From assembly GCA_000091205.1 (NCBI GenBank), contig AP006497.2: a stretch of DNA of 64,000 nucleotides, one strand, 5' to 3'. Source of the DNA: Cyanidioschyzon merolae (Eukaryota). Shown here one piece after another: positions 1-54,477 of the stretch. The notes under the pieces were generated by a model, which searched no databases, had not been told where the DNA came from, and saw only the letters and a list, made by a program, of their open reading frames with translations. The translations under genes and the position numbers were made by a program. How positions within the stretch are numbered: position 1 is the first letter of the stretch; every line of letters starts with the position of its first letter.

Positions 1-3000
1 AAGTTCCTTGTCCGCTGCACGCGTAAAGCTTACACAGTCCCATTTGATACAGAATTTTTGGAACGCAATGTTGTCCATGATGAGAGGGGCATCAAATGGA
101 AAGTCTGGGCTCATAGTCGAGTCGTGAAAATTCGATTCGTCTACGCTCTTATCGCGCAAAGCTGAGACGCACTGTCGACTGGAACAAATGGCTGCAATGA
201 CACAGACCCGGGCCCAGGACGCTTTTCCACGCAATAAGAAGAGAAAAGTGCATCTGATAGCATACTCTGTAAGGGTGGTATGCTGCTGTCGTGTCCTGTT
301 TTTGTCAATGTGCGTGAAGAGCGGAGGGTTCGTCTTTCGCTTAGAATCATGTATTTGAGGAAAAATTTTAGTGAACTTGTGGCATGAGTTTATGACGAAA
401 TCTCCAAGAAACGGCGTCAGGCTTTTTCGTTTTCAATGCACTGGTGGTGATCGCTGCGCCAACGACGCTGCTGCAAACGGAAAGGGCGAAAACCTGAAGA
501 ATGCTTGATTTTTTTAGTGCATACTACGCGTAAGTAGACGAGAAGAGAGGTGTCTCGTTCGTACGCATCGGACAATATCATCTGTCATTTTACGAACGCT
601 TGCCCGCAGGTGTCACAAATCACCTTGGTGCAGGTGACGTTCGGAATTCCAGCTCCAAGGAGTCAAATGTGTCACTATGAAAAACTGACCGAAGATACTG
701 GGAGCATACGTAAATCGGTACGCCTTCACTGCTGCACTTCGATTTTTGAGGTTGCGCAAATGAAATAGCTCTGAAAACTATCAAAAGGCAGTAAAAGAAC
801 GAGTATATCCATGTTCCATTACAATCTGATACGCGAAAACGCGGACACATCGCTGTCAACAACTGCAGACGAGCCGAAGCACCCGGCGGGTGCATCGCTG
901 CGCGCCAAATTCCTCTGCATGCGCGTGCGGGATTTGTTCTCCCGAGCGAGTGCCTGATATCTGCCGCTGCAACGCGGTGGGACTTTCCCAGAGGGAGCTC
1001 GCTTCCTCTGGAACTGAGGCTCTCGAACCTTGAGGATCATCAGAGATCCTTGCATAGAGACCTTCTTGAATTTGAGCAGCAGATTCGTGGCGATCTGGCT
1101 GCGTTGGAGGGCGCAATGCTTGGTAAATTTCGCGCCTTGCTTGCCTTTCTGAAGAAGAGCTCCGTTGTCGGTGCTTCTAGCCAAACGGAAGCTGTCGGGG
1201 CGTCGAGAGTCCTGGCCACAATTCGACCTGCTTGAGAGATGCGGTTGGGAACGTCCGTTACTGCACGCGAAGCGCTGAAGCGCAAGCGGAAACAGCGCCA
1301 CCGAGCGGTGTGTCGACACCGTGTTTCACGTGTTCAGGCCAACTAGATCGTGATCGATATTCCCGTTGGATTTGAGAGTTTCGCCTCGCACTGGCTCGAG
1401 TGGAGCGAGCTCGTGAGGAGCTCGCGAAAAGACTGGACATGGTCGAAACCACGACCGCAAACCTAGTGCACATGGTCGAGTCAAGAGCCCGTCGTTTCGG
1501 CCCAGGTGGCCGCTTCGCGGCAAGCGGCGACGCCTGGAATGAAATATTCCAAAAGGACGGAACGAGCTCGCGCGTTCAGCTGTACCTATTGCGTATGATT
1601 GACGGTGTCGAAGAAAAAATAGCAGGTATGGTCCGCGACCAGGCAACATGCTTTCGACGACCATGAGGTGTCGACTGCAACAACCAAGATGCGATAACGA
1701 GTCACACGAAATCAGGCGCCTTCGAACGACGAAATCCTGAGACATTACAGTTTTTTACGGCAAAAATCTATTACTGCAGCGTTGTGTACGTGGTTATATC
1801 GAATAATGGAACATTACGGTCGATTAGCAATTACCGAGGAAAATTTTTCACGGCGTACGTGCAAGGCGCTTCAGACGTTCTGGATAACTGACCATACAAT
1901 TGAAATGCGTTGCTCCGTGAGAGAATCCGATGCTCGCTCCGCAGGCCAAGAATCCTTTTCACCGCACTTCTTCCGCATTGGAGCAGAATTTCCATATGGA
2001 ATACTGAACGACTCCCTCGCAAGTATGCATGACAGAAAGCCGCTGAACGATCCGGAAGCACATGACTCTTCCTGATTTTGATCGAGGCGTTTAAGCCGCG
2101 GTGTGAAAAGTGCCTGCGCACGTTTTAGCTGGTGGAATCAGACCAGAATAATCAGGTAGTTTTTGGTTTCCTTGCAATCTGACACTCATTCAGCCTACCG
2201 TACACTATATCGTAAATCCGTATCTGTTTCAAGCTCTTTTTCTGTATCTGTTTCTGTGTGCACTCGTGCCCGTGATGTGTGAATCTCACTCCAAGCTCAT
2301 CGACAAGAATCAAACAGAATCGATCCCCGCACTAGTTGTAAGCTTTCGTGTGCGGAGCCGGCATGCAACATTTGCGCGCTAAAGCACGTCCAGCGCCGCA
2401 AGATACCACCACCGAACGACGTGACATATATATATCTATCCATTTCTAACTTGCAGTGCATTTTGGTCGATGCACGCTTCTTGCATGCGCACAACTGACT
2501 CTGCTTGCGAACCAAGCACGCTCCCTTGTACTCGTGCAAAAAATCGTCCGTTTGAGTCAGTTGGACTCTACGGAGTATAAGTTTAACGCAGACCGATCTG
2601 CTCGATTCGATGCCCAGAGCGTCGAGATGGGTTCCGACCCGGCCACTCGACACGCTGGTATATCTCCTGACGTCCTGCGTACCCAGCTCTCGCTGGTACG
2701 GAGGTCTGGGAAAACTGAATGCCTGCACCAGCTTTCCTTTCAGGTCTTTGGGTTCGGCCCCTTGGTTTGGAGATGCGGCGCTGGTTTTGACGCCTTCCAA
2801 CCTGGGATCCACGCCAAACACAAACGCTTGCTTTTCGCTTACCTTGAAGGGTTGAAAATGAGTGTCGTTACTCGACTCAGGCTTTGTCCTCAAGACTTTG
2901 ACAAAGTACACGTAGACTGATATTCCGTCGGCCTCCACCGTCGCTGTGGATTGCTTTTTATATTCTCCCTGTAAAGGAGAAAGCTCCGATTCGCTCCATC

Positions 3001-5289
3001 AATGCTGCTCGACGTTGTTCGAATGCTTCATATTTGCTCTTAGAAACCGGCCGTGGCTCACCGACAACGCCATACACTGGACGAGTGTCTACGATGAGCA
3101 TACGGGCTCTGATGAAAGATATCCCAATAACGTCGCATAGACACTTCAGGAAGCCATGGAGCTGGGATTCACAGAGCAGTTGTGCCATGCTCTTGCGGGC
3201 TCTGTTCAGGAACACTTCGAAACGCAAAATCCGAGGAATGTAGGCATCCCGTTTCACCGATCGTTTGGATATCACGTCCGCCAGTTCTGGGGAAAGGCTA
3301 TCACAATGAGTTGGAACTGTACGAAGCTACCCATATTCTCGTTGAGACATCTCTTCTGAGCTCGCTACCATTTCGAACGTTCCAGGTATCAGCTCTGGAC
3401 ATGATTTAATCGACGCACCCGCGATCGTTTTCTTCAGTATTCACCTTTCTGAACCAGTAACGTGAGGCTACGATACCCACAGTGTGATCCTAATGAAGCG
3501 CTCTAGACTAAACCGCATCTCACTCCGGTTTTTGAGGTCTGCTTGATACTTTTTCAATCTGGTTCTATAGACTTTTATTCCGATCGATGCGGCACCGCGA
3601 AGACTCGGGCATGCTGGAAAGCGTTCCAGCGAATCTCGGATCCTAGTAACAGGCAGTGATGCATCTTTAGCCCCGGGAGTCAGCAGTGCTCCAACATGAA
3701 GGCTAGATCGAAAATTTCGAGGGGAATATAGACAGCTCGTCGTCCTACGTCCCGTACTCGTGCGAAAATCTGTTTGACGTGGTGCGTCCAGGCAAGGGAA
3801 ACTGGGCTAGGCTTCCTCAAGAAAGCTGCTACGCAATCCCTACTGGCGCCATCTGTAATATGTTTTGGAATATTCTCTCCAGTGATGAGATTGAATACGG
3901 AGCCATTGAAAGCGCTCTCAGACTGATTTTGCGGCGCCGACATTATTCCCTTCCAGTGAATCCTCATCGTCGTGGCTGGAGGGTCTTTCTCTTCTTTGCC
4001 GGGTGGTTTCCTCTTCTTCTCCTTCACACGGTGGAATGCCATGGATGTGATTGCGTTACTCCATATCGATTTGGTTCCCTTGAGATTCAGACACATGGGG
4101 AGAACGACCGGTACAAAGCTCGCCTTCCCTACGAATCTATCCACAGCTATCAAATTTCCTTTTGTCACTATCTCTGTTGCGAGCATGTCCACGATCTGTA
4201 GTGCTTTTTAGCGTCCCATCACGCATAAGAGCGGAGGAGTGGCACGCTGGTTCGTGGATGATACAGGGTAAAAACGACTTGAGAGAGAACCGTGGCATGG
4301 ACGCGAACGACTCCTGAATTCATCCACAAGCGCACATGCGACGTTAAACAACATCGATGACGCCCTCAACTGCAATAAACTGGAGAGAATAGGTTGAAAC
4401 GAAATATAGCTCAACGCCTGTCTCAGCTGCATGTCGTCCTTTGTGTTTTGTAAAGGAAAGCGGCCATTTCGAAAAGTGAGAAAGACTAGTGAGGCGAAAA
4501 GCCCCGAAGTGCGTCGGCGACGAGTCCAATATGTGATGATGGTATCCTTTTTAGATTTTGTACACTATCACATGATTCGAATGCCGGTTGGACTTCTATT
4601 CCAGGAGTGCTGGCTTGTTTTGTGGTGATGGACATCGGGTTGACTTCTTCCACCGTCGAGTGACAAGCAGAATATTTCTCCCGCATGAATTCTCATCGAG
4701 TGAGTCAAACACCATTCTTTGCTGTCATCAGCGTTCACATTTGAGTACGAGATCCATTCTCTGTGCTTCAACACTTGACGGTCTCCTGTGGAAGCACAAT
4801 TTTCTCTTTTATCTATCCGTATCTGTTCATTAGCGGTCGATTCTGCGGTAGAGATCCTCCATATCCTGTGCCTTCTTAGATAATAATTCCAAGAAAACGC
4901 AGTGAATAGAATGAACCAACAAGGTTAACAACATGAAGGTAGAGTTTGATTAGTTCTGTTTTGGTGTAGAGCGTTTTGGATAAGGACTACGAGATAGGTG
5001 GCTCATCTACCAGGTGCCTGAAGAATTACTGAGTTGTTCATTTCGAACCTTTCGCGCCAAAGCTGTCAATGAAAGAATAAACTGCTGCCGCGACCGTTCT
5101 CCGTATTAGATGATATATTCCTTATGTTGAGAGCATTCGATAAAAACAAAAACAAAAAGTTCATGCACGTACGGGTGTTCAAGGGACACGCTAATTTCAT
5201 AGTCCTTCAACTCAGGATTTTTCACGCCCGCAGCAGTGCATAGCAGGAGATCGAAATCACGATACAATGTATTCTATAGACCATTGATC

Positions 5290-6470
5290 ACTTGCCTGTA
5301 AGATATATACTCCTTACAGAACAGTGCCTGGAGGACTCCATTCCTCATTCATCTCAGGCATATCACAGTACTCAGATGAACGAGAAACACTCAAAGAAAC
5401 AAGAACAAGGGCTTCGCGTCGAAAACCGGTATTCTTAACAGGTGCTTGCGGTCAATGGTAGAAAACGACCCCTTGATCATATATTCCTGAAGGCAAAAGC
5501 GATGATAGTTGCCAGGATGGGCGTCTCTGTTTCTCAACAGCTTGTTCGTTTGGCCCTGAAAACACTTGGATACACTCGCGAAAAAGATCCCTATTTCACG
5601 CACAGCCATCGTCCACCAAAGTCGCGACGACAGCGTTCCCGGAACTTCGTTATCCATATGAAGCAGCGGGACGTCAATTCATCCTCGTCGCCGAGACTTG
5701 CTTCAGACGATACGGGTGGAGCGTATATGGGTATTCGAGGAGCAGGGCGGCCGTTGATAATACGGCCGAACTCGTGGAGACCGAGGACGTTATCAACTGT
5801 TCTGGCTGCAGTGGATTTACATGGCGGCCCCAGTTTCGCTCGTTGAGAAGCCTCATGCAATAGCACCAGCTTCGCCTTATCATTGACGACTTTTCCATGA
5901 CGTGTAGCGACGTCATTCTACTGGACGACATAGCATTTGGCCATTCCCATCGCGTTCGATTTTTTGGAGATCCTGTCCGGGTAGAGCTGCTCTTCAGTAG
6001 TCCGTTCTCTATGTGGTTCAAACGCATCGAAGAATGGTTTATTCTACTGAAACGTAATGGTCGCTCAACTCGTCGATTCGCTGAAGCGCTCAGTTCGGAG
6101 ACATCGGGACACATTTTTGTCTTTTTCCCGCAAGTGCTTTTCCCTCCGGGAAGGTCCTTACCTAAGGGCATCAAGAATTATGTTCATTTCAAAATGCTAT
6201 GGGATGAGTTGGGGTGTACACTTCAGAAGTTCGATATCGAGAAAAGCCAGCGGAACGCTTCGGCTATTGAAAAGTATGGAGAGCTGACCGAGCCGCAAAT
6301 GGCACCGAGGACACGAGTTCGAGGACTCTTTGCATTGGCAAGTTTAAGCGGCGTCATGAAAAGAATTAAATTCGTACGTCGAGACCAGAACGCCGCCATC
6401 AATATCGGGAGATGTCCTGTGCTGAACACGAGACCCGAGGAGCTGAGGCGAGACAACCTTGTGGGGTAGC
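5290..6470 (+). mobile_element. Decayed composite element: Tc1/mariner(IS630)-like DDE transposase remnant (about 5290-6060) followed by a Fanzor/TnpB-type RuvC-III module (about 6170-6470; RRDQNAAINI at 6377-6406)
   Basis: ORF 5442..5846 has an HTH-like N-terminus and a DETGF-like first catalytic region (LASDDTGGAYMGIRGAGRPL). The next frame (from 5897) has the third catalytic region (VILLDDIAFGHS) and the DDE_3 tail ELLFSSPFSMWFKRIEEWFILLKRN (compare FIPPYAPWLNRIDGVFSIVKRN at 30.9 kb). The 3' part (KSQRNASAIEKYGELTEPQMAPRTRVRGLFALASLSGVMKRIKFVRRDQNAAINIGRC) is homologous to the C-termini of the other Fanzor-like copies. Frameshifted, so non-functional. Confidence 0.5.
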
Positions 6471-7245
6471 CTCTCGGGCTCGAGTTGTACAAGGAAAAGC
6501 TGAAACTGATAGAAAGAGGCTCGTCAAAAAGGGATGGGAGGCATCTGCACAGGAGTTTTCATTTACTCTTCTTGGGCGTTGGACATAGTTTTGATTCACT
6601 GGCGATGATATGTCTAGTATAACTCTTTCGCTACACGCATGTTCCGAGAATTTCCGCGAATCCGGTTTTGTCCGTGATCAATTTTATGGGATCAAAATAC
6701 ATTGGTCAGATAAGAGAGCTTTTAGTTGGCTGCTAATGCTGAAGGTTCATTTGATCTCTTGAATGCAGCAGATTAGATGCTTATTTCATAAAACCTCTGC
6801 TGTAGATCTTAATTTCGGTGGGTTCTTGCGATGGAAATAGTGGAGTATGTTGTATCGAAACGGTATCCGCGGAGTGCCCAGTTGAAAGCTCGACGCTTGA
6901 TGGTAAGTTTTCGACGCTTTGAATTCGGCAGCTAGGGTCGTGAAAGAGTTTGTGCTGGAGAGAAAGCGCGCATATTCAGCGGAATGCAACGAGGCACAAA
7001 ACGCCCAGAGCCGACCATTGCAGAGATCGGAGGCAACTGAGCGTGAACGTGTTTATTCCACAAGCGCCTCTGTACTACAGCCTCAGGTGAGCGCTCGCTG
7101 AATTGCTCACTGGCGGCAGCATCTCATCGTATTTAGATGCCGTTGGATCGCAAGCGGGTCGCAGCGCCAGAATTGACTCCCAGAACGACGCCCAACTTGA
7201 GAACCTCATTTTGATTCAAGTTCAACACGGAAACTTTATGTACGG

Positions 7246-8865: not shown

Positions 8866-10321
8866 TCATCGCCGTTCCGTCTCTGCCAGATGCAATTGGA
8901 AGAGTGAATAGCTCGAGCTGTTCCTGCTTTTTCATTCTTCCGAACTTTTTTACACATGCAGCATTGACGTTCAGATTGCATGAACGAGCGGTACATGATT
9001 CTTACGTACTTGTAGGATTCTCGGTCTTTTTTTAGATTTTGTTCTTACGAGACGTTGCGGCGGGAATTCGTTCTGCCACTGAAACCATGGTGATTCGCAA
9101 CGTCATCAACGAACAGATCGTAAAACAATCTATATCATTCTATAATGCGTACGCGGGAATCGCCAGACTTTCAAGTTCTTTACATGCAGCATGTTCAGAT
9201 CACGCATGCATCACCGTTTCGATCTTACTATTTCATGGCAACCCGTGAGCGCTGCAATTTGGGCGGATAGATTGACGAGGAAAACAACACCTCGTCGTCC
9301 CCCTGATGACTCGTTCACAAGTTCATGCCTAGAGTTCAATGAACTTGTCGCGTCTAATAGTCGATCCGTTTGCAGAGACAAAGACTCTTCTCTCTTGGGC
9401 AGTCGAGAAAACCAGAATCCGCAGCAGCATAATACCTCTCACGAGATATGCTTCCAGAGGCTTCCATCTCTTCTCTTTGCATAAAAAAGGTATTGGAGTC
9501 GGACTTGAGTTATCGCAGCGATCACTTCCAGTGCGGAATGCTTTGCCGCTCTGCGCGAAGGTAGCATACAGACACCGAAATTTCTCGACTTGTTCTCACG
9601 CCAGAATTTACCTTCCAGTACATGTTTCATCATGGGCAACCTCGCGTTCTGCATGTCCTCTATCGAGTGCAACAGCGTACACTTGCGCGTCCAGCATACA
9701 GAGTGCTAGACGATAGGATCGGCCAAGGCAAGCCCCCCATATAGGAGCGCTTCAAAGAAGGCGGATACGGAGTGACGCGCGGACAGGAGCCTTCTGTACC
9801 TGCCATTGGCATGCAACGAGCGTTGAAGCAAGCGTTCACGCGTTGTAGGACGGCGCTCGGAGTGCGATACCGTGTGCTGGATACCTTTTTGCTCCTGACA
9901 ACACTCAAATGTCAGCGGTACGAACTGCACACCGAGGCTGTCTGCAAACAAGATGAAAATGGCTAGCGAAGCATAGATGACAACTTCCATCGATGCATGA
10001 AATACATCAACAATAGCCAGAATCAGAGAAATCGGGATTTGCATGATTTCTTGACCATTCTTCGATAGCTGACAGCGGAGCTGGAGGGCAAGGAGAGATC
10101 AGCGTACTCAAAGCCGGAGACAAGATGGCGGAAATGGAAGACGTCAAAGATAGAGCCTGCAAAAGCTTGTGTTGATGGCAGTGTGAACTGACCCAAATCG
10201 TAATGTGCGCGTTCGCGTTCATCTAGTAGACCTATTCCATTTTTTATTCTGACATGGGTGGACGCTCGCGAACAGGCGGATCACTGCACAACAGCTGATC
10301 TCAACAAAACGGAGAATTGCA

Positions 10322-10490
10322 GAAGAATCCACATACACTCTTGTCTTGGGACGTATAGTCTCTGATCTCTGCCCTATCAAGTGGCACCAGAGGTTGTAGC
10401 GCATGCAAATCCACATACACTCTTGTCTCGGGATGTATAGTCTCTGGTCTCTGACCTATCAAGTGGCACCAGAGGTCGTAGCGCATGCAA
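10322..10490. repeat. Tandem repeat, about 84-bp unit x2
   Basis: The unit 'atccacatacactcttgtct.gggacgtatagtctctg.tctctg.cctatcaagtggcaccagaggt.gtagcgcatgcaa' occurs twice in direct succession. Confidence 0.8.
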
Positions 10491-14198: not shown

Positions 14199-14879
14199 TC
14201 TTTTCGAGTCAATCGCTTGAACGATAAGAACCGCACGTGAAAGCGTGTCCTGTTGGAAGTAATGACGCTCGCGTGCGAGACCACTGGACATGCAGCCGCC
14301 AGATGTCGGGGAACCAGGCGTTGGGCGAGGAGGCCTAGCGTATGGTGGAGACGCCACCAATGAGGGCCTTGATCAGATATAGCGACCGGGAGACGGACAC
14401 ACAGACAGCATGACTGACGGACTGACAAACCAACCGATCAACTGGCTGACTGAATGGCTAGCAGACTTACTGACTGACAAACTCGAGCAGAGCATGGGAT
14501 CACAGGTCTCATTGCCAACGACAACGACGCAGCAACATGCTCTATGCCTCGCTTTTCATTTCACCGGTTTTGTTGGATGGGTGGCACATTCCTGGAATCC
14601 CACACAAAGAGTGCGGCCAGCATGACCTGACTCTGGCACACGCTCTGCATCCATCGAGCGCTTGAGACCCCAGCCCACGCCAAAGATAAGTCATGCATGA
14701 AGACGTCACTTGTGCTCCAAAAGCAAATCGTGTTTTCCAGGACGCTGAAATTCGGTTTCCTGGTGTGCTTAAAGGCGCTGCAGCCTCGGGAGCTCGACGT
14801 GCTGAACCATACTCTACAGCTCGCTGTCAGAAATCCAGGATGTACGGTACTGCAGGGTGGACAAGCTTTCAAATTCGGG

Positions 14880-15070
14880 GCACGTTGCTGTTTTTCAAAG
14901 GATCAAACGCTGGATATCCAGTTGTCTAGGTCCAAAACCGGTCCAAATTCGGTGTACATCGCTGTTGTTCAAAGGATCAAAAGCTGAATATCCGGTTGTT
15001 TAGGTCCGAAACCATCCAAATTCGGTGTACATCGCTATTTTTCAAACGATCAAAAGCCGTGTATACAGTG
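14880..15070. repeat. Tandem repeat, about 80-bp unit x about 2.5, preceded by a short (ctga/gactga)n low-complexity tract at about 14400-14470
   Basis: The unit '...caaattcggtgtacatcgctgttgttcaaaggatcaaaagctgaatatccggttgtttaggtccgaaacc...' is repeated with minor substitutions. Confidence 0.75.
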
Positions 15071-18199: not shown

Positions 18200-19390
18200 T
18201 ACGAGAAGGCCAAAGCACATGAGCACCCCAACGGGACAAGTCGCGAGCCACTCGCACGATTTGCCGCTGCAGCAAGGTCAGCGAATCGAAACAGAAGACC
18301 ATGGATGGGCGGAAGCTGCCCAACACAGCCAGGAATGTCTGCGTTTTTCTCCAGAAAACTCTAAAAGTTGCAAATCTCAGAACGGTTTGCGTATTTGTTG
18401 AACGCTTGGACGCCAACACGGATACGGGACGATTTTCGAGAGTTTCGCCTCAACGCATGTACTGGAGCCTCTGGACGGACAGCATATCCGCGCGAAGAGA
18501 TTCCATATGTTTCCAGAGACAAAAAGTTTACGTTGATCGGGGATCCCATATTGCGGAATGGGTATTGGCTGTCGGGAAAGTGTCCATCATCCTGCGCTAT
18601 ACTCCCAGATTCCATCACCTGTTCTCGGGTGTACTGGTCGTTTTCTACGTTCGATTTTGCACCGAGCCTGCGGTGAGAACCCGCCTCAGCGCTTATACCG
18701 CTAGAGCAGAAGCATCACGGAGACCGGACTGCTTTGTCATACCAGTGAGGGCGGCGACTCGAGGCAGGGTGCACCCCGCACGGAATCCGAGGACAGTATC
18801 ATTCTGGAGCCGACAATCTGCGCAGGCAGACGTACTGCCTGCGGCACCGCAAAGAGATGTGCTGGGAGACCACGTCGACTAGGGCGATGGCTGGGTGCAT
18901 CCGAACCACTCCTGTTCCCAGAATAAACCTGCATTGCGGACGAGCTGCTCAGGTCTCTTCACAGCACTAGGCACTGGGAAGAGCACGACGCACTTACATA
19001 GCAGACTCGGTCGGCACGCCGGACATTCCGCCTCGAAGGTAAACTTTCCACAATACGGAAACCTTTTCCCCCTTTTAACGCCTACTGTGAAGGTCGAACG
19101 AAAGTATCATCGAATTGCCAGTTAGTGTTTAGCTTCTGTTGTTTTTTCTATAGTGCGGTCGATACGCGCACCTCGATTCCTGGCAGGCATGACACACGAG
19201 ATGCATCTCGCAGTTGATGAGAAACGCGATCCTTTTTTCGCGTGTTGCTCTAGCGTACAAGATGTATTTGCCTGAGCGTAATACCAAAGTAAGTTTCCCA
19301 ACTGAATTGTGTTCCATTCCCAAATTAGTGTATTCAAGTGATTTTTCTCGGTTTATAGGAGACGCGTTCGAAGCGCGTTCATCGTCAGAA

Positions 19391-21600
19391 ATGGAAAATA
19401 CCAGAGCAAGTTATGGACATGGAAGTCGAGGATCCTGGAGGGCCGGTGTCGCCGGCTGCCGGAAAAATTAGGGAAAACAGTGGCGAGCAAAGAGGAACAG
19501 AAGAAGAAGAAGCCAAGCCAGGAGGACCGACATCAATGACTGCTAGAAAGACAACAATGCGACGAGTTGGTTGTGACAGCCTGTCTTCTTGGACATATCA
19601 CAGATCCGTGCAAGCCAAAGTTGCAAGCGGCCATCAGAAATCGTGTCATTTCGTACTCCCTGAGTATTCGAAATGCTTCTTCAGGACTAATGAATTTGGT
19701 GAGCAAGATATATCGCAGCGTGACAATTACGAAAACAGTCGAGATTCCGGAGGAATTTATCTACAAGAGCTTCATTTGTCACCTGATGGTTGGCACAAGG
19801 GAATCATCGAGGAGAAATGGGGGAGTGCACACCCTCCACGAAACCGACGGGGCAACAAAGTACCACAAGAGCCTGAAGAATCATATGACCATGAACCTCG
19901 AACGTTTCATGATACGCGCAGTGTTTGCGCCATACCCGGGAATCTCTCGCAAAGGAATATGGGCGACTATCAATGGCATCACGAACGATGGTCATCATGA
20001 AGATGAGATAGAATTCATCGACAAGAAGACGTCACACAGGAGCAAGAATGAAGCTTCTGTAATCCGTGCGCGTATTCAAGAGCGTCGTGGGTTACTGGGC
20101 GGGCGGATCCAACAGAAAAGATATCAGAGTTGAAAAAAAATATGCAAAGATACTATCGCCTCATCCTACGGTATTTCATGTTCCTGGATCGAGAACTCGA
20201 ACGCAAGGCAGAGGTGACGTTAAGTGGGGGAAAATGAAGAGTGGGAGAGACGGAAGGCTCTCCTAATAGGAGAGCGCTTCAAAGTCGTTCCGTTGTGGAA
20301 CATGAAGTCACATTTTGTGACTACCGACTCCAGAGTCCTTTACGGTATCATGGAGGTGATCAGTTCGGAGTTCGATGTAAGGAAGACAGAGTTCTCTGGT
20401 GAAACCCGGGAACGAACTGGAAGAATATCTTCGATTTCAAACGTCTGAAAGTAAGCAAACAAAAGGTATTCACTGGTATGATCGAAACAGATGGGGTAAC
20501 CATGTGTGTACACTATCGGTGCTTGAAGGTGGATCGCCCAGTTCCGCTCGTGACGAAGCATGAAGATGAGAAGGAGGCGGATCCTTCGACGCAGAAAGTG
20601 CAGGATAACGACTTTGTTGTTGGCGCGGACCCCGGGGAATATGAATATCATAACCAACGCAGCACCCAAGCGTGCGGAAGGTGGCATTGACGGTACCTTA
20701 CGTCAGAAAGACATGCGACTTTTCAGGTTTTCGAGAGCGAAATGCTATCTAGAAACGGGTAGAATGAATGCGAGGAAAAAAATCGAGAAATGGAATGCAG
20801 GAATGAGAGAGCACCTGGAAGCTGTGAGCGATGTGACGAGCCACGGAGCGGACGTTCAGGCTTTTCTGAAATTCATGGAAGTTCGCATATGGCGCACCGG
20901 GATGCGCTGTGGGAGGAGTATGCCAAGCCCCGGTGGGCTCGTTTGCGAATGAATCTATACGGTGGTAAGCAGCGGGCATTTGCGAATTTTTTCAATGAGT
21001 TGAGCTCCCTGAAGGAGGACGAGAGTCAGAGGCTGGTTGTAGCATACGGAGCAGGTCGCTGGATGATCCCGAACGAGACTACGCCAGCTCCAAGGACAAG
21101 AACGTACAAAGAGTGCGCATAGCGTTCCGGCACGATACCTGTAGATGAGTTCCGAACATCGTATACACACCATGAACTGGGGTGTATACTCCAGAGGGTG
21201 TAGATGGAAAAGTGTCAGCGGAGTCCTGAGGATATAGCAAAGTACGGAGCGCTGACGGAGGAGCAAATGGAAAGGGGGCGAAAGTTCGAGGACTTCTCGC
21301 ATTGGTACGTACAATCAATGGCAAGAAACGTATGGAGTTTGTGAACCGAGGCTTGAACGCCGCCATCAATATCAGGAGATGTGCGGTGCTGGAGACGAGA
21401 CCTCCAAAGCTGACGAGAGAGAATTTTGTGGGGGAACCTCTTATGGTCATATTATACGGCAAGAAGCTGGAACCACTCGTAGGTTGCCGGTCCAAAAAAA
21501 CCGGGAGGCGTCTGCACGTCAGTTGGACGCTTTTCGTCTGGGGCGCCGGTCGCCGCCACTTTTGTACACCGCCGGCGGCTGCGTTTTTCTTTAGAACGGC
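19391..21600 (+). mobile_element. Fanzor/TnpB-like element, copy C (degenerate; multiple frameshifts)
   Basis: Collinear homology to copies A/B across ORF fragments 19567..20133, 20224..20448, 20478..20690 ([11 protein letters not shown], a RuvC-I-like DPG motif), 20560..20952, 20790..21122 (LVVAYGAGRW) and 21302..21661 (KRMEFVNRGLNAAINIRRCAVLETRP). A 1-nt indel relative to copy B is visible at about 21270. The 5' end 'tatggacatggaagtcgaggatcctggagg' is shared with the 31.1-kb copy. Confidence 0.6.
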
Positions 21601-26531: not shown

Positions 26532-27954
26532 CCAGCAGCGTGATATAGGCTCTAGCGCCCACCAGGTCGGAACCGGCAGTAACTAGAATCCCCAGTACCT
26601 CTCTGGTGCTGAAGAGCGATAATCCGATTCCGGTACCGGGGGCGATCAGAGCGCAGCATTTGCTGCTGCCCGAGTCGAGGATCTCCTGCAGCAGCGCATG
26701 CGGCACCAAACCTGTTCACAGCGAAATGCATGCAGTATTTATGGGAAGGTAACCCCGCGCTCCGATTCCATCGGATATCACGAATTACTGCAAGCTATGG
26801 TGAAAACAGCTTGCGGTAAGGGAACGTCACGTACGGCGTTTGAATATCGGCATGATGTACAGGCTGAGTCATCGCATGGTGCACCAGGCGTGCTTTTTTC
26901 CGCACTGGTCGTGACGTCATTCATTGGCGCCGTGTGCATGGCAATGCATGCGTACACACAGGCGCGCATTTTCTATATACATAGACTCGAATGCGACACA
27001 TGCGTTCACTACTGATCGCTGTATACAGCGAGCACCAGCAGCAGCACTGGACTTGAGAGCGCCTAAAAAGAATAGAGACTAATCGCTAACTAGCTGCAAC
27101 TGTGCCGGAAGTACAAATACTAACAATTAAGTAGCTACTCGATAACAATTCCGTGCCACCTTCACGGTAAGCTTTGAAAAGGGAGCATTATCCCGTAATT
27201 TCGAAAGTTTACCTCATAGGCGGAGAGTCCCACCAGCCGGACGAATATGTCGGACCTGCGCTCCCTGCTGCTCCCAGACCCGAGTGCTGTGGCAAGACCT
27301 GTACAGATCGTCCATCACGCATTTCATTCACGGACTAGGAATGGGTAGGTTGCATCCAAGTGTCGCCCTGGTCGCTGTCGGCTTGTGGTATAGCGCTTCG
27401 CGTTGCCGCTGGCAGTAGGTCTGTCTGAGTAGCTTGCATGCACCCAGCATGATTATGGATCCCGATCCCGCACCATGCAAACTACACCTCCAGCCGATGC
27501 CCTCATCGATACCGTAAAGCGGTTCTGTCGCCCTAACGCATCTTCCCCAGCGGTATACGCGCTATTGCAGGTGCAGCAAGGCAGGCACTCGGCGCACGCT
27601 AGAACCTACGGAACGACAAGCGTATCCGAAAGGAACTCGCCGAAATGGAACGTGAATGCATGATGCATCATGATGGACGAGTTTCCGATTACCAATATCC
27701 ATCCCACAAACTGACATCCATGTACAAGTAAACGTTCTGACGAATGAGAAACATAGTCTTGAAAATGCTCCTCGACGGCGCCTGTGTCCAGATGATTCCC
27801 GCCAGGAGTGCGCAGCGCCGCAGGCGATCGTGATCCATCCTGCCTTGGACCATGGTATTCACTTTCCGCAGGCGGGGTAGTGTGTGCACAGTTTCAGGAG
27901 AGGCTGACGCACGTAGACGTTGTTTAGGGGAACTTTTGGCCGCGTTTAGGCCCT

Positions 27955-29781: not shown

Positions 29782-30229
29782 ACACGGCAGCATGAAATTT
29801 TCGGATTCAACTAAAATGTTCTTTTGTATTCAAGGGGGCAATGCGCTACGCTGTGTCCGATATGTAACCACGGAATGACGGATGATGCTGAATTGCTGCA
29901 TCTGATTGGATGTCACCGGAAAGGCAATTGCTGCTGACGACCACGGAGGATGCGTCGTTTCCTGCAAATACGACGATATTGATGGATGGTATCACAATGG
30001 GATAGCGTTTGGCGAAGCTGGGGACGCAGCGAGTCCTTTCTGATCCCAAGTCGCCGTGAATCCGGCGGTGCGTTCCTCGTAACCCGGTGATATGCTGCTT
30101 GTCGAAGTCTTGCGATTCAATTGGTAATACCTCTGTTGCGTCTGGTAGAATGCTTTTCGGCAGTGCCGAACATGAGATCGAAATCCCCATGAAATATACC
30201 GTATAGATCGCAGACGAATTGCCTGTAGG

Positions 30230-31035
30230 ATGTACGTTCCTTACTGAACAGTGCACAGAGTACTGCATTCCGTATTCAGGTCCGTCGTACCACAGAACTC
30301 AGATGGTTGAGGAACACGGAAAAAAAGAAGGATACGCGTTCCGCGTCAGCAACCGATATTCTAAAAGACTGCTTGCGGTCAATGGTGGTGGACGACCCAT
30401 TGATCACCGTACGAAAAGCAGAAAGCGACGATAGTTGCTATCGCGGGCGTATCTGAATCTCGCCAGCTTGTCGCTGTGCTCCTGAAAACACTGAGATGCG
30501 GTCGTAAAAAAGAATCCTAGTTCATGCACGATCAACTTCTGCTGAAATCGCAACTACGACACAGTCCCTGCAAGGTTACGATCGATATGAAGCACAGGGA
30601 CGTCGGTTCCTTTTTGCAGTCGACGAGACCTGCATCGAACGAAACCGTCGGCGCGTATATGGGTATTCGCAGCTAGGGAGCCCGTTGCGTATACGGATGA
30701 AGTCGAAGAGAACGAGGATATCATCTGTTCGATCTGCAGTGGATATATTTGGCGGCCTCAGACGCTTTCACGGAGAAGGCTCACGCAACGGCACCAACCA
30801 TTATGTCGAATCCTTGAGGACTTTTCCCTTGACGCCCAGCAACGCCCCTCTACTGGACAACGTGGCATTTCACCATTCTCTTTGGCTTCGAGCTTTTGCC
30901 GATTCCCGCGGGGCAGATCAGCTTTTCATTCCTCCGTACGCTCCGTGGCTCAACCGCATCGACGGAGTGTTTTCTATCGTGAAACGTAATGATCACTTTA
31001 CAGAGCGCATTGATGAATCCTTCAGGACACGGTGA
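30230..31035 (+). mobile_element. Tc1/mariner(IS630)-like DDE transposase remnant (frameshifted)
   Basis: HTH region (SKRLLAVNGGGRPIDHRT, homologous to 5442 LAVNGRKRPLDH), first catalytic region VDETCIERNRRRVYGY, third catalytic region and DDE_3 tail LLDNVAFHHS...LFIPPYAPWLNRIDGVFSIVKRN. Spread over at least 3 frames. Confidence 0.6.
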
Positions 31036-31136
31036 CACACCAGGGCACAGTACCTCGTTCGTCCACGTGTGCTTCTGCCTCCGGGACGCCCCACTCCCTG
31101 GGTCATATTGAAGTGCTTTCATCAAAGGAAATAGAA

Positions 31137-31623
31137 CATCTATGGGACAGGTATGGACATGGAATTCGGGAATCCTGGAGGCTCGGTCTAGCCGGGTGTC
31201 GGAAGAGAAACGGAAACATCCTCTTCTCGCCAACCAGCAAGCGAAGAAGAGCAAGTCGTGAAGAAGAAGAAGAAGACGAGGAAAAGCGGAGATAGGCGAG
31301 GAAAGTTGGTTGTCCGATGTGACGATGACGGGACTGTAGTGGCGCAGAAGGCGCAAGTTCTAGGAATCCTTGCATTGGTACGTTCCACCAACGGTATTGC
31401 AAGCATGGCGTTCGTAAACAAAGCCTTTAACGCTGCTATCAATATCAGACGATGTGCGGTGCTGAAGACGAGACCCGCGGAGCTTACGCGATCTAAATTT
31501 GTATGGCAGCCGCTAAGGCTCGAAGTGTGCAGGGATAAACCGAAACCGATAGCAGGTGGCAGGTCAAAATACGCTGGGAGGCGTCTACACGTCGGTGTAG
31601 ATACAGACACGCTATCGTCGTGA
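31137..31623 (+). mobile_element. Internally deleted (MITE-like) derivative of the Fanzor-like element: 5' about 190 bp joined to 3' RuvC-III module
   Basis: The 5' part matches the copy C 5' end ('tatggacatggaattcgggaatcctggagg', (gaa)n tract, 'gttggttgt'). It then jumps directly to the 3' module (ORF 31258..31623: ...AFVNKAFNAAINIRRCAVLKTRPAELTR...GRRLHV). It sits immediately downstream of the DDE remnant at 30230..31035. Confidence 0.55.
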
Positions 31624-31897
31624 AGCTTTTCAGGTTTCATCGATAAGGCATGGACATGCTCGTTGGTGGCAGGGAAAACCTCGCGAGACTTGCCGTGCGC
31701 ATGCTGGTGCGATCCGCTACTGCATGCGCCAGCAAGCACTTTATGAGCGCACTCACGGTCATGAGATCACGGAAGACCAGGATCCGCTACGACACGCGCC
31801 AGCAAGCACTTTAGAAGCGCACTCGCGCCCATGACAGGCCGTCATAGATCCGATTTCGACACCACTGGCGAGATTTCACGGGAATCGCCCAACTGGC

Positions 31898-32797: not shown

Positions 32798-34750
32798 GAG
32801 CGGAACAGGACGCTGAAACTTTGAGCTGTGAAGAGAACCGCGGTTTCCCTAACAAAGAACCGCCTGGTCGATGCAGAGCGCCGTTTGACCAGGAGTACAC
32901 ACAGCAAAGCCAGTCAGAGAAGGGCCTCCAGAAGCGTCCCCGTGCGACAGTAAGGCGTGCCTCAGCCCGAGAACGGACGTGCGAAGTAGCTGCAAGTCTC
33001 CCGTGCTCACTTAAAGGAAACCTTCGGTTTTGTGCGTGGCAAGTCAATGGCCAAGCTGCTGAAGAACGAAGCAATCCTAACGGTGCGAGAACGTTGAACT
33101 GAGCCAGCCGCTCACGTCCACGCGAGAAACGCCTCGAGCCCGCGCAATACGCCTGAAACGTCGTGCCCGGCTTGCGGTTCAGCGCAGAAGCGCTGTCCAT
33201 ATTGGACCATTTTTGTACATAACTGCGCTTCAGCGTCGCTACACCCTTACCTGGAACACGGAACCGCTCGATATGTTTCTGAATTTTGATGTATTCGAAC
33301 TTTTTAGATGTGCAACATCGACATTCAAACTGCATCCGTGCGAGATTACGGATTCGTAGATACTTGTAAGGTGCTCGATCTTCTGCTGGGGTCGCTCTTT
33401 CGAATCGTCTCCGCGGGAATTCGTAATGTCTCTGAAATCAAGATGATTCGCAGAGTTATTGAACACGAGTTGGTAAAATAACTGATACAGGTATCCCATG
33501 CAAATGAACAAGTGCCATACCTTTTCCGTCCTTACTTGTACAACGCTCAAAACACGCATACACTCCGAGCTGTCTACATATCTGCATCAACGGAAATTTT
33601 GGACTCGACACTTTTCGCAGCTTGATTGACGAGGAATCATACTCCACTTTTTCGCATGAAGACTTTTCAAAAATTCATGCATAGAGTTCAATGAACTTGG
33701 CAAGTCGAGTATTCCATGCGGTCCAATAGACATATTCTGCTCTCCTAGTGGCTATCGAAGAGACGCCATTCCACGATAGCATCATGATCGGTCTCATCGG
33801 GCACCATCCTTGAGGCTCCCTGTCCTTTCTGTTTGTATGGGAAAGGATCTTGGACTCGGACCTCAGTCATTCCAGGCATCGCGTCCAATGGAGCATGTCT
33901 TGCCAGCTTGCATGAATCACGCGTACACAATTGCAAAGTTCTCGACATCGCCTTCCGCCTGGATGTTCCCTCCGGTACCTGTGCCACCACGGGCAGCTCC
34001 TCGTTCGACAAATCCTCTCTCTCGTACCGGACAGCGTACGCTCGCATATGCAGCAGACGTTGCACCCACTGGATGCCTTATCCAGAAGAGATCCGCTTTC
34101 CTAGGGTACCGCACTGAGCGCGAGAACGGGGCAGCGCCTCCCAGAGAGCCCCCTGGATCTGTCAAGCGTATGTAGCAAACGGTAGAGCAAGCGTACGCAA
34201 GCTACAAGGCGGCGTTCAGAGCATGAGCTGCGGCACGCATCCGGGAACACCCGGCGAGGTCCACGTTTCACTCCTGGAAAGCGCGCACGGCTGCCGCAGA
34301 TGATGATCATCAAAATGGCAAGCGAAGTATCGTTCGCAACGACCGCCCGTGCATGGAACGCGCGACCAAAGTTCGCGAGCTGCTACATCAGAACTTTCAT
34401 GCTGCTATCCACATGCTTCGGCTGCTGACAATAGAGCTGGAGGCGCTGCGCATACCACGCGAATGAAAGACGTAGCTGGTGGAGCAAGGAAAATCAAGCC
34501 GTCAGATACCTTGCCTCCATTGACTGTTGTTGACGACAATGGCAAGAAATCCTGACTTGAACGTGTACACTCGAGTCCGTATAGTGAAGCTCTTCCATTG
34601 TGGTCTGAAAATGACAAGTGCAAGGCAGAACTGTTCGTGTGCATCGGCAGTCGTGCGTTTACCCGCTGAGGCCGCCCGCGCCCAGCGTCCAGATCCGTCG
34701 AGCGATTCGTTTCCGTTCACAGCGTCTAGGGCTTGACCTTTAACGCTGTC

Positions 34751-40785: not shown

Positions 40786-43700
40786 TTACGGCCGTTTTTT
40801 GACCTTGGAAGGCGCACCCGCTCCAATAAAAAGTGCTGGAGGCAGCCGCTGTTCCTTGTGACAGGTGCGTGCGAAGCACCGCGTACCGCAAAAACGGAGC
40901 GTTCCCCGGTAAACGACTGACCAGGTTGAGGTTTCGGGTCTGGGTAGCTGCTGGGACGTAGCAGCGGGCCCCGGTGCGGCCTGCTGTTCAACTAGATGGG
41001 TGCGTTCATAGAATGAGCAAGTATATACTATGGTGTTCGGAAAGTATAGTTTAGTCGCAGGGGCGAACACGCCTCGCCGATCTGCGCGCCTTGCTGCCCC
41101 GCTGCGTTTGGCAGATGAGCATGGGATGCGACGCTGGTCACTCGGTTCCCGAATTTCGAGTTGTTCCACCAGCATGAGCACCGAGATGCAGACTCGATAT
41201 TCATAGAGTGGCAATCAAGGCTCACGAGCGCCCGGGTAGCTTTCGAATTCGCGGTCGTCGTTTCGGAGTGGATTCTGGGAGACGTTGCAGTTGGAATGCC
41301 TCATGGGAGCGGCATCAAAAAATGATTCGCGACACCTTTGAACAAGGGTTCGTCCAGTAACCGACTTCGCCATCCCGTTTGTACGTATACCGCTCCATGA
41401 TTCGCTTTTGCGTACGTATAGCATGCGCAAACCGCGCATTGTTCAAGTTGCAGGTCTTTTATTTCTAAGAAAACGCAAGGATGCAGCAATGCGCGCTGCT
41501 GCATTCACGAGGCGCGAAGCTCGTCGTCGTCCTTTGGCGACTTGTTCAGAAACGCATGCAGAAACTTCGTTGACCCGATCACGTTAAATACTCAATTCTA
41601 TTCGAAAGAAAAACGCTACTCCTTTCTTTGACCATCGACGCGAATGCAATCGGCGTCAACATGTTCTCGCTCATGGGACATGCTCCCAGAGGTTCGCGTC
41701 TCTTCTGTTTGCGTGGAAGTGGGTCTTGGGGTCGGACCTGATTTGCTGCAGCAATCGCCTGCAGTGGGGAGTGCGTCACTGCTTTGTACGAAGCGGTTTC
41801 GTCCGATCGAAAAGATTTCGATTGTTCTCCAGCCTGGATTCTCCTTCCTGTTCTTGTTTCATCATGGATAACATCGCCGCTCGCGAATTCTCTATCGAAT
41901 GTAAAAGCGTGCACTTGCATGTGAGCGAACAGAACACTCCCTGAGCGGATCGGCATGAAGAGGCCTCTGTTCGTGGTGTACGGCGTCAGGCGCGAAAACG
42001 GAGAAGAGCATCGGGACGACATTGTGTATCCGTCAAGGGCATGGACCGAGCAGTGCAGCAAGCATACGCGTGTGACGAGGCGGCGTTCAGAGGAGGAGAT
42101 GTGGGAGACCTACGGGAACACCTGGCAACGGACAGGTGCCATTGCTGCGACGGACATGCCCTGATCATATGCGAAGGAGACGATACCGGTTGGTGAATCG
42201 TCGATCGATCGCAACTTTCTGCTGTGTATGAACTGGGTAGAAAACAGTGGGAAGCAGCGTCATCGCGACATGAACGATGCCATCAGCATCCTTCGACCTC
42301 GTTCATCGGACCCGAGCTGGCGCGATAGACCTCGGTATGTGAAGCCGGATACCAGAGCGATGAAGTGGAAACATTTGCGGAAGAATCCCGTAAAGGCTGA
42401 CGTTGATCACAGTACGAAGAGACGCAAACTTGCGCGTGCACGCCAGAGTTCGCTACGTGGACTCCCGCCACCTTAGTCCAACACGGATATACTTGTTCAC
42501 GTCGCACAGTCCTATTACCCAACTGTATCTGCTTTCATGGTCGAGACTACCGGTCGCATACGACGCATCAGAGACCGTATCCCGCAGAACTGAAGATAGC
42601 GCTTGTGAGCGCCCGGGAAGTGTTTGCGCGCTCGACATCGCAACGCCACCGCGCGTTGCTCTGCGGTGAATCACCGAGTGTTGCGCATGATTCGATGTAT
42701 TGGGGGCAACATTGCTGACAACGTTCGCGTTAGCCTGTTGGTTTGTTGGGATACCTGCCCTCGACGCAACGAGCGCTTGCCGCAGAGCATTCAGTGTCTG
42801 CAAACCTCGCTCTATGGCACTGCTCTATGAAAAGTCCGCGACCTGGCGTTGGCTCGTGCAGCAGGCGCGACGCTCCACAGCAGGGTTGCTCCGAGTGAGC
42901 GGCGCCTTCATTGCGATAGGTATGGGCACTGGTGTTGCGATTTATGCTTTTAGTGAGTGGTTCTCCGGTGGTGCGGAAGTGCGCGCGGCAAACTACCGGG
43001 CAGCTATGCGTCACGACCCGGAGGCTAAGCGCTACGCCGACCACAGCCGGGACGCGCTGCGAGCACTTTTCGCCCAACGAGCGGACCAGCAGAATGTGGA
43101 GCCGGAGACGAGCTCTGAAAAGAGCTCCGTAGCGCTCCCGAAGATTCCCCGAGTGGCCTGGCACCCCAAGGCCGACCCCAAGCCGGACTCGTGTTCCTAG
43201 ACGACCACGGTCGCTGGTCGCTTCCCCGGGTCGGTTGGGTCCCGGGTGTCGCTCCTCTTCTTGAGTCGTGTTGCACACTCGGGTGCACCTCGCTCGATGC
43301 CCTCATACCACTCCGCCAAAACAGGCAGCCAAGTCGGAGACGCCAACATAGAGGCCTCGACGCTGTCGCCTTGGAGACCAGGGGTGTCTGCTGTTGCGGT
43401 TGGCGCTGAAAGGTTACTCGAGCCCTGGATAGAGCCCTGAGACGCACCTGCTTGCTCGCGAGGTGCCTCTCGGGGTGCTGGCCCCTGCCTCTGAGCTGGC
43501 TGGTCGGAGCGAGTCCGCCGTCGCCAACGAAACCAGCCCCCTGAACCCGTGCGTGCGGCGGGTGCTGTGGACCCTGAACCTGTCGCCTTTAACTCACACA
43601 GTGCCTGTTCACTGCAAAGCATCTCCGCCAATTGCCAAGCTCGCGTTTGAACCAACTGCCTGCGCGCCTCTGCTAGCTGCGACTCGCGGTGCTTAAAGTC

Positions 43701-50195: not shown

Positions 50196-51149
50196 AACGC
50201 TTGACTAGACTTGTTTGAGGTTTGAACCACAAATGAATTAGAAAACTACACTTTGCTACGACCTGAACGGATATCCAATGTTTTACAGCTGAACAACACG
50301 TTACTGATGCCCACGACAGGGACCTTTACCACAATGAACGGAGGGGCGGAGGCAGTAGCAGCAGAAAATATTGACGATAATTCTGAGTAGTTATCCGCTG
50401 CTCCCGAAACAACGCTGCAGCTTCGGGCGCAAAATCTGGGTCCATCCTCGAGCTCGGGCTCAGTTTTACCTCCTTCTTCGGTTTCTACCTCAACTCTGGA
50501 AACAATCTCGGCGGATATTTTGGAAGACGGCTGGCGGTATGTTCGCGTTCGAAGCTGGAACGAACGACTTGCCCGCCTATGTGTTTGGGGAGCGGATACA
50601 AAGCCGCTGAAAGGTTGGTTCGTAGAGTATCCCCAGTGGTTGAGGGGAGCTTCATGTGTCCGGCAAGATAAAGGTCGCATTCGAGTCGACCTTGACTAAT
50701 GTACATCTGATTCTACGCTAGTGCGGCGCCAAGCACTCAATGAACGACTGGAATGCGGGAGGCGCTGGTGGCATGTACGCTCACACACCCCGTGGAGGGT
50801 GCATCTAAATTGACGACGTATCTCTGGAGTACCGCAGCGCTATTCCTATTCCGTTACGCGCTACAAATCGGTAGGTATTGCATCATGGAATATTTGTGGT
50901 GTAGCCTCGAAACTAGAATAAGAGATATCGAATTACTAGTAGAGTAAAGAGGATCAGATACAACTGAAGGACTCTACAAAAGGAAAAGCGATCCAACGAG
51001 ATACGGAGAAGGAGACACAGGAACCTCATGATCCACCTAGATGCAAAATAACCAGAGAAAGCAGCTCAGGAAAGAGCCCGAAGAAGAAGAAGACCAACAA
51101 GAAAAGACAGAAGAATAGAGAGAAGAACTCCCAAGCGAGCCCATCATGA

Positions 51150-53378: not shown

Positions 53379-54477
53379 AAGGCTCCCGCCGCCTCTAGCG
53401 AACGGTCCGAACAACCATATGGGAATTTAGACAAGGTACCAGTCGCGCAAGTAACGCCGGCTTGACCCTATCCGGAACTACACCCTAGCATACACATGCA
53501 AGTACTGGTAGGGGGTGCTGGAATTCCCGGGACTTGCTCGAGGTACCCAGTGGCTCGCCAAAATCCGCGTTGGTGGCTTCCGGCTGGCAGCACCGGCTCT
53601 AAGCCGGAAAGGAGCACTGGAATCGCACTGGGAATCACACTGTCCCTGCTGTGGAGACGAGAGCCCCCGAGAAGCTGACGCATTTACTGTTACAGTGCCC
53701 GCGCTAGAATCAGGAGCGCAGCGAGCTCCTTGAAGGACAGCAGCAGCTGGGCATCAGCGTGATAGTGGAAGGCCGGACACTCATTCTGAGTGTAGCACTG
53801 GCAACTGATGGTCCGCTAACCGAGCCGCAGCGCTCGTTAGTGGCGAACAAACTCACATTCTACCTTCTAAGCGGCAGGTCCAACGAATCGGATGAGCACA
53901 CGGGTTTAGTGCTCTTTGTGCCTGCCTACTGGCGGGTGTCAAGCACAAACCCGCATTGCCGACCGACAACACATTCAATGCATGATCACGAAGGAGAGAG
54001 GCGGCTCCCAGGATTCATCCTAACAGCCAAGTTTCTCCAGCGTGTCGTGCAGCGAAGGTAAGACTGCATTTGCAGACTCGCTGAGCATATATCGACGAAG
54101 AGACCCGATTCTACGTCGGGTGAACCACGCCTCGAGCCGACGCCCTCTGTGGTATAGCAACGCCGTTCTGTCTCTATGAGCTATCTGCTCCAGCATTTAA
54201 GGTGCAAAGGCGAATACGGAGCGGCAGCTACTAGGCACACACGATAGGACGTATGAAACGACCAGAATATCTGAGATGAAGCATAGGTAATCTAACTTGG
54301 AGGCAGGTGCTTCATCATGGACGCTTTCCCGAAAGCCATTATCCATTCCAAATTCTGGGATCCATGGTCAATGGAAACGTCTTGTCAATAACAAAAAAAC
54401 AAATTGCGCTCGGTGGGCGCACCTCGGAGATCGGGAAGTCAACTGACACGACGCGCATGCCGCCGTAGAAGGGTAAC

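Follow-up and report, generated by a model that had tools for sequence, protein, structure and literature searches.

The DNA analysed here, 64,000 nucleotides of Cyanidioschyzon merolae contig AP006497.2 (assembly GCA_000091205.1; this whole stretch is called the window), is a transposon-rich, intron-poor eukaryotic sequence of ~54% G+C. Between host genes at 5199-6602 it carries L1, an internally deleted composite of a DDE_3 transposase gene and a Fanzor1 gene, which is a dead insertion, an inert relic. Its ends were placed to within about 5 bp, and the element is larger than the 5290-6470 span given to it by an initial annotation made from the window sequence. In order, L1 comprises a DDE_3 pseudogene, a 105-bp spacer of which the last ~30 bp are Fanzor leader, the final ~350 bp of a Fanzor1 gene and a 3' tail. 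A sister locus, L2 (30150-31650; the 31-kb locus), holds the same composite with a different internal deletion; both loci and all of their parts lie on the plus strand.

The limits of L1 were set by alignment of its copies, among which similarity starts at 'ATAGTCCTTCAACTCA' (~5199; the shared start is also given as 'ATAGTCYTTCAACTCA') and stops at approximately '...GTTTTGATTCACTG' (~6602), the common right end reading '...GTTCAC(T)G'. A right end at ~6557, where similarity to the long Fanzor copies of the window (A, B and C, described below) fades, was moved to ~6602 once the tail had been aligned. The 5' side of the DDE unit is a non-coding stretch (5199-5375) that is conserved among the aligned copies; next comes the transposase pseudogene, for which a three-frame reading through stop codons and frameshifts gives 5376-6097. 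The following spacer (6098-6172), common to the aligned DDE composites, reads 'GTGCTTTTCCCTCCGGGAAGG', contains 'GTGCTTYTSCCTCCGGGA' in L1 and L2, and can be aligned with L2 and with copies L007, L030, L026, L028 and L071 from outside the window. Next comes a remnant of the Fanzor 5' leader (6173-6203; approximately positions 865-895 of CMe-1A, the published C. merolae Fanzor1 consensus), which stops ~8-12 nt short of the expected ATG; its sequence, 'AAGAATTATGTTCATTTCAAAATGCTATGGG', can be aligned with the bases of L2 that immediately precede 31137 and with those directly ahead of the copy A start codon at 19413. At the deletion junction (6203/6204), 'CTATGGGA' is joined to 'TGAGTTGGGG' and CMe-1A ~895 to 2737, with 1 nt of possible microhomology, and the same aligned junction is present in L007, L030 and L026. 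The C-terminal Fanzor1 coding remnant (6204-6550; CMe-1A 2737-3086), which includes the RuvC-III motif, is followed by the 3' tail, of a type designated tail-2 (6551-6602), up to the common right end.

A 190-codon open reading frame (ORF) at 5897-6469 spans the C-terminus of the transposase, the spacer and the Fanzor C-terminus, and holds both peptides from which a DDE-Fanzor 3' junction had been recognized, bearing out that part of the initial annotation. The two parts do not abut as closely as had been described, the spacer and the leader lying between them. Equally, the reported absence of a Fanzor 5' terminus applies to the start codon and the N-terminal coding sequence, both of which are missing, and not to the leader, of which a remnant was kept.

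Two deletion junctions in sixteen dispersed copies

L1 and L2 are colinear from end to end in a global alignment that runs through the 5' non-coding region, the transposase, the spacer, a homologue of the Fanzor leader segment that immediately precedes the ATG, the Fanzor 3' end and the tail. This comparison, which the initial annotation had proposed as a check, thus reveals likeness well beyond the RuvC-III block, and the likeness breaks off at nearly the same points on the left and on the right. The junctions themselves differ, as had been claimed: CMe-1A ~895-2736 was lost from L1 and ~969-2839 from L2. Accordingly, L2 retains ~70 additional bases of 5' coding sequence (31145-31216; CMe-1A 898-968, 78% identity) together with a GAA-rich stretch; beyond its deletion the match sets in again near CMe-1A 2840 (31347-31596; CMe-1A 2840-3092, 71% identity).

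Further copies came from metagenome contigs (JGI) of the same organism as the window, 99.4% identical to it over 18 kb. Scanning these contigs with a Fanzor profile yielded 78 loci, the flanks of which held additional DDE copies, and a consensus DDE query, which does not select for the Fanzor part, returned 28 called proteins whose contigs provided still others. The resulting set comprises 16 independent DDE copies, 64-73% identical to each other, and none of the 16 lacks the Fanzor tail. The L1 junction was found in eight (L1, L007, L030, L026, L089, L093, L095 and L098, the last four being typed by colinear matches across the junction and by the start of the CMe-1A match) and the L2 junction in seven (L2, L028, L064, L080, L092, L096 and L099), with the remaining copy, L071 (the same locus as L072), carrying a full-length pseudogenised Fanzor behind the same DDE-to-leader junction. 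The 5' part of the DDE unit stands at the start of all 16 copies, and the transposase gene is near-complete in 15; the left edge could be read in 14 and is the same in every one of them. Multiple alignment of seven composites resolved the two junction classes and the common ends.

The flanks are unrelated among the copies for which flank sequence is available, apart from one 95-bp match, and the called neighbouring genes differ. With the same junction and termini recurring between unrelated flanks, L1 is a deletion derivative that spread after the deletion. Each junction is common to seven or eight dispersed copies and was therefore inherited from an already deleted master that later spread. 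The two independent truncations of the initial annotation thus stand as two distinct deletion events, although not as events that took place at L1 and L2 themselves. Its suggestion that the DDE part and the Fanzor 3' part form one repeated unit is upheld by the tail in 16 of 16 copies, by the colinearity of L1 and L2, and by an intact pair of the two genes in another eukaryote (see below).

Identities are equal within and between the junction classes, and the substitutions are balanced (transition fraction 0.53; C>T plus G>A about as frequent as A>G plus T>C), which rules out hypermutation resembling repeat-induced point mutation as the cause of the ~70% identities. The pattern is that of an old burst followed by neutral decay. 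A separate feature of L071 is a pair of inverted copies of the DDE-unit 5' part (1-392, minus strand, and 3539-3931, plus strand), 3 kb apart on one contig and 96% identical; among the DDE copies seen, all other pairs are far older.

The transposase, the Fanzor1 family and their pairing elsewhere

In a self-comparison of the window, the transposase part of L1 (5233-6065) matched 30160-30997 with 70% identity (E = 1.6e-99). The raw ORFs gave a weak Pfam DDE_3 match for L1 (E = 0.032) and a better one for the 31-kb ORF (E = 1.7e-9), and a protein search with the degenerate L2 DDE translation returned zero matches. Since raw ORFs were too weak in Pfam, a consensus transposase protein was rebuilt from nine DDE copies. 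This protein covers positions 4-136 of the 146-position DDE_3 profile (E = 2.9e-21), scoring 76 bits where the cut-off is 28.6, and displays DD34E spacing, D...D(34)E; by its DDE_3 catalytic domain, the predicted enzyme is of the Tc1/mariner-IS630 type. The gene is broken in L1 itself, and the sense strand of the paralogues is likewise interrupted by stops, the longest stop-free stretches being 122-257 amino acids over ~1.4 kb.

The Fanzor part of L1 (6204-6550) is 71% identical to CMe-1A consensus positions 2737-3086 (E = 1.5e-46), and within the window 6204-6557 matches 21172-21441, 56489-56845, 48081-47777 (minus strand) and 31340-31590. It extends from 'ELGCTLQ' through RuvC-III, the motif of which, RRDQNAAINI (RDxNAAxNI), lies at 6377-6406; RuvC-I and RuvC-II are deleted. 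The part is thus a gene fragment that lacks the complete split RuvC set (D...E...RD). Three long repeats of the window encode a long protein broken by stops and frameshifts, of which the L1 block is the C-terminal end, and a search of a 1.8-billion-protein library with the family profile recovered 1380 relatives, many of 600-700 amino acids. A profile of 50 homologues, among them the intact protein P0001, matched Fanzor1 chains in the PDB from Parasitella (9cf0, E = 5e-19), Spizellomyces (8gkh, E = 5e-11) and Guillardia (9cer, E = 1e-5). Pfam searches of the raw ORFs produced zero matches to Fanzor families, as did searches of solved structures with single sequences and a shallow profile, only the 50-sequence profile reaching Fanzor1; an AlphaFold2 model of another homologue, P0002, had a mean predicted local distance difference test score (pLDDT) of only 33. 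By homology to characterised members, the CMe-1A-type family is Fanzor1, that is, a predicted eukaryotic TnpB-like RNA-guided nuclease.

Sequence identity also makes the window family plainly that of the published CMe-1 protein and CMe-1A element of C. merolae, a Fanzor1 family of ~150 copies with a 3169-bp consensus, described as unclassified, without transposase and without terminal inverted repeats (TIRs) (Bao & Jurka 2013, PMC3627910). The three long repeats, 80-90% identical to this consensus, are copy A, a full-length pseudogene (18518-21600, plus strand; consensus 5-3168, 80-86% identity), copy B, also a pseudogene (54406-56918, plus; 649-3166, 86%), and copy C (47681-50308, minus; 729-3137, 85-90%), which is inverted relative to copy B and 98-99% identical to it. 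The TE-N2_CMe 5' module of CMe-1A is present in the window as well, with a solo copy at 27109-27739 (minus; CMe-1A 7-635, 75% identity). L1 departs from the consensus in that positions 1 to ~865 are replaced by the DDE_3 transposase unit and in that the ~50-bp tail differs.

Direct pairing of the two genes extends beyond the deleted copies. At L071/L072 the DDE unit lies directly upstream of a full-length Fanzor. At L090 (5001-7778; Logan SRR29704191), from an unrelated AT-rich eukaryote, an intact DDE_3 transposase of 294 amino acids is followed after 33 bp by an intact Fanzor1 of 619 amino acids (hhalign probability 100%, E = 6e-145; 28% identical to P0001), and L091 (SRR19052713) is identical to this pair. 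The consensus C. merolae transposase is 42% identical to the L090 DDE and 30% identical to that of Pythium PUl-1 (E = 3e-12), and the latter two match each other at E = 5e-19. PUl-1 and PUl-2 of Pythium ultimum and the viral PGv-1 are Mariner-type elements encoding a transposase and Fanzor1, and the Pythium elements have 24-33 bp TIRs, TA duplications and both genes (PMC3627910); Fanzor has likewise been reported in association with autonomous Mariner/Tc1 elements (Jiang et al. 2023, PMC10530073). As in the C. merolae copies, PUl-1 has its transposase gene ahead of Fanzor1, and the transposases are homologous, whereas the C. merolae copies show no TIRs or duplications, have lost most of Fanzor in 15 of 16 cases and are all pseudogenes. 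L071/L072, L090 and the literature all speak for the DDE_3-Fanzor1 pair as a real transposon architecture. A search of the L090 locus for TIRs found none; a G+C-rich stretch of ~150 bp follows its Fanzor stop codon.

Several other features of the CMe-1A copies were recorded. Copies B and C (here 54484-56879, plus, and 47691-50311, minus) face each other with their 5' ends, and the 4.2 kb between them contains a series of reverse-transcriptase-like ORFs (51150-53400) of the long interspersed nuclear element (LINE) type; this arrangement around a retroelement has the look of an inverted duplication of recent date or of a palindromic rearrangement. In copy C, a 75-bp unit is repeated four times within the Fanzor coding region (48627-48925) and encodes a 25-amino-acid repeat located just before the RuvC-I aspartate (residues ~385-480 of P0001); the unit count varies among copies, the intact, 752-residue P0001 having four. 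TE-N2_CMe, which is 635 bp long and makes up the 5' end of CMe-1A as published, is represented by fragments at 18518-19150 (plus) and 54104-54387 (minus), the second lying inverted and directly upstream of the Fanzor unit of copy B.

Tails, palindromes and other repeats of the window

Compared with the CMe-1A consensus, the Fanzor copies vary in their 5' starts (1, ~650 or ~870) and fall into several internal-deletion classes. None of these classes has kept less than the final ~250 bp of the family consensus, with a tail behind it; where no contig end truncates the 3' side, nearly all copies extend to the CMe-1A 3' end. Two tails were distinguished. Tail-2 (~50 bp), found in L1- and L2-type elements, differs from tail-1 (~80-130 bp), found in most CMe-1A copies and in L071, and occurs in addition in two full-length Fanzor copies (L063 and L028b) and in DDE-less mini elements with the L2-type deletion (L045, L076, twice, and L051). 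The groups recurring upstream of Fanzor units were seen in loci L002-L079, ~250-520 bp upstream of the Fanzor start; within one of these groups, a ~95-bp fragment of the extreme CMe-1A 3' end is located ~750 bp upstream.

According to Jiang et al. (2023, PMC10530073), guide RNA and right element end overlap in the characterised Fanzors. The module retained in L1, from the 3' end of the gene through the tail to the element end, would correspond in location to the Fanzor/TnpB guide-RNA scaffold; here an Rfam scan returned zero matches, and RNAalifold recovered zero pairs in tail-2 and just a 3-bp helix in tail-1. Two named hairpins of tail-2 had 64% of cells paired, compared with 56% in shuffles (0 of 500 reaching the observed value) and 35-55% in slid controls; this support is weak, as decayed copies would lead one to expect.

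Short palindromes were noted at both edges of the Fanzor unit. The one at the left edge (CMe-1A ~645-665; window ~19150-19175) occurs as GCGCTC-GGT-GAGCGC or GTGCGC-TCGATA-CGCGCAC, both arms changing between subfamilies. The 3' ends of copies A, B and C (~21520-21600 and 56800-56918) contain short palindromes resembling hairpins, three at most, and the outermost of these exists in two mutually complementary forms, CGTTCGA-CTT-TCGAACG and CGTTTTTC-TTT-TGAAAGGCG. Neither the left-edge nor the 3' palindromes were confirmed by RNAalifold. In the 13-copy consensus of the composite, an 8-bp inverted match, GTTTCACG / CGTGAAAC, is placed nearly symmetrically, ~22 nt in from the left end and ~15 nt in from the right (window ~5222-5229 and ~6575-6585), with a score no better than shuffles, and may be due to chance. 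A likeness between the left end of the composite and the leader of stand-alone Fanzor units, perceived by eye, was dropped when it did not beat shuffles.

Other repeats of the window are unrelated to the Fanzor and DDE elements. Near-perfect tandem repeats of 2 to 3.9 copies occur at 62100-62541, 63633-63867, 10326-10490 and 14870-15057, with periods of 114, 117, 82 and 74 bp, respectively, the first two within or adjacent to long ORFs at the right-hand end of the window. Another dispersed family, 64-74% identical and related neither to CMe-1A nor to the DDE unit, pairs 8897-9699 with 33252-34058, 9438-9686 with 41670-41918, and 34154-34255 with 42025-42126.

Origin and spread of the composite

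Both Mariner/Tc1-type transposons with Fanzor1 and transposon deletion derivatives are already known. Internally deleted derivatives of cut-and-paste elements include Ds from Ac, deleted P and mariner elements and the precursors of miniature inverted-repeat transposable elements. The composites described here resemble Ds/Ac-type derivatives in their internal deletion, in the retention of both ends and in the subsequent spread of the deleted form; they differ in that the classical derivatives lose the transposase, which is then needed in trans, whereas both forms found here keep the transposase and lose the passenger nuclease.

L1 is probably a long-dead insertion of such a deletion derivative, stemming from a two-gene DNA transposon with a DDE_3 gene and, downstream on the same strand, Fanzor1. 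In the ancestor, the DDE_3 transposase gene would have been followed on the same strand by a CMe-1-family Fanzor1 gene and the 3' tail of that gene. A single internal deletion removed Fanzor from just before the start codon to codon ~610 (CMe-1A ~895-2736); the transposase gene was spared in full, as were a little of the leader, the final ~115 codons of Fanzor and the tail, and the L1-type form was then copied to at least eight places. A second, independent deletion form, of the 30150-31650 type, was copied to at least seven, and all copies later decayed neutrally to ~70% pairwise identity. We infer that the element's own DDE transposase moved the copies and that the right end of the transposon is provided by the Fanzor tail that was kept; as other Fanzors would suggest, this region may overlap the guide-RNA scaffold. 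A requirement for the 3' tail in cis, as the initial annotation had argued, would fit all of the data.

A number of observations weigh against this history. Terminal repeats shared by L1 and L2, for which the initial annotation had proposed to look, were not found: no conserved TIRs are present at either single locus, the 5199-5375 region of L1 has no inverted match to the right end, and the consensus left end, built from 7 or 13 copies, fits the reverse-complemented right end no better than shuffles do. No TA or other target-site duplication was recognisable in the copies, a 2-bp repeat being indistinguishable at ~30% divergence; TA does occur at or near both edges in most copies, where at this divergence it is not separable from element sequence. 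L1 and L2 carry tail-2 and L071 tail-1, and L071 is therefore not their direct parent. The left edge of Fanzor units abuts at least four recurrent upstream groups besides DDE, including TE-N2_CMe. Finally, the L2-type Fanzor deletion is found in elements without any DDE, and the Fanzor ends may therefore move independently of the DDE transposase.

These observations leave room for a chimeric, 3'-anchored Fanzor element, in which CMe-1 units move by their own ends, chiefly the 3' tail, through one-ended or rolling-circle-like transposition or nuclease-helped recombination or homing, and the DDE gene is one of several captured 5' modules, like TE-N2_CMe. We regard this as possible, if rather unlikely. 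It would account for the lack of TIRs and target duplications in the composites, matched by the published CMe-1A without TIRs (PMC3627910), for a constant 3' part combined with at least five 5' modules (TE-N2, three other recurrent groups and DDE), for the 3' end kept in every deletion class, for the L2-junction mini elements without DDE and for the palindromes that the Fanzor unit has both at its left edge and in its 3' tail. Bao & Jurka (PMC3627910) described chimeric Fanzor1 families that have their 3' ends in common but differ in their 5' regions, as well as one-ended Fanzor1 families carried by Helitrons. It accommodates less well the uniform 5' side of the composites, with all 16 copies starting in the DDE-unit 5' part, 15 of them with a near-complete transposase, and one left edge in the 14 that are readable. 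Nor would a randomly captured fragment be expected to yield a consensus that restores the catalytic domain; moreover, the gene order is intact in L090 and in the TIR-bearing Pythium elements, and the tail hairpins have weak structural support. A bolder version, according to which the ~50-130-bp CMe-1 3' tail with its terminal palindromes is the real determinant of mobility and needs neither TIRs nor DDE, seems to us improbable. If true, it would imply a mechanism such as hairpin-dependent, one-ended or nuclease-assisted copying, and would explain both the five or more unrelated 5' partners and the tail kept in all deletion classes.

Two other accounts of the locus fare considerably worse. A transposon-rich window with other nestings, such as the reverse-transcriptase element between the two inverted Fanzor copies, might have brought an unrelated DDE transposon and a Fanzor element side by side, to be truncated separately at both loci. 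This is very improbable given one junction in eight L1-type copies and the other in seven L2-type copies, flanks that are unrelated where available, and a DDE-to-leader junction that is the same in all classes, L071 included; the differing flanking genes exclude that the copies are one locus in different strains. The 190-codon ORF, ATG-initiated and uninterrupted across both parts, could be taken for a functional chimeric gene in which the C-terminus of the DDE protein and the RuvC-III region of Fanzor were fused and domesticated, a reading to which we give next to no credence. The ORF is an accidental read-through and exists because a 4-bp gap at ~6097, relative to the 31-kb copy, coincides with the position of the consensus stop codon; each catalytic domain is represented by fragments only, and the paralogues are stop-interrupted and evolve neutrally.

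As these copies show, one branch of CMe-1A was physically coupled to a DDE_3 transposase, and the coupled element spread at least 16 times, tying a family published as unclassified to a transposase. The bearing on what Fanzor and TnpB contribute to their host transposons is weak, both the mobilising enzyme and the ends being putative. In the derivatives that succeeded, the transposase was retained and the nuclease lost, which suggests that the Fanzor protein was not needed in cis for the spread of the element.

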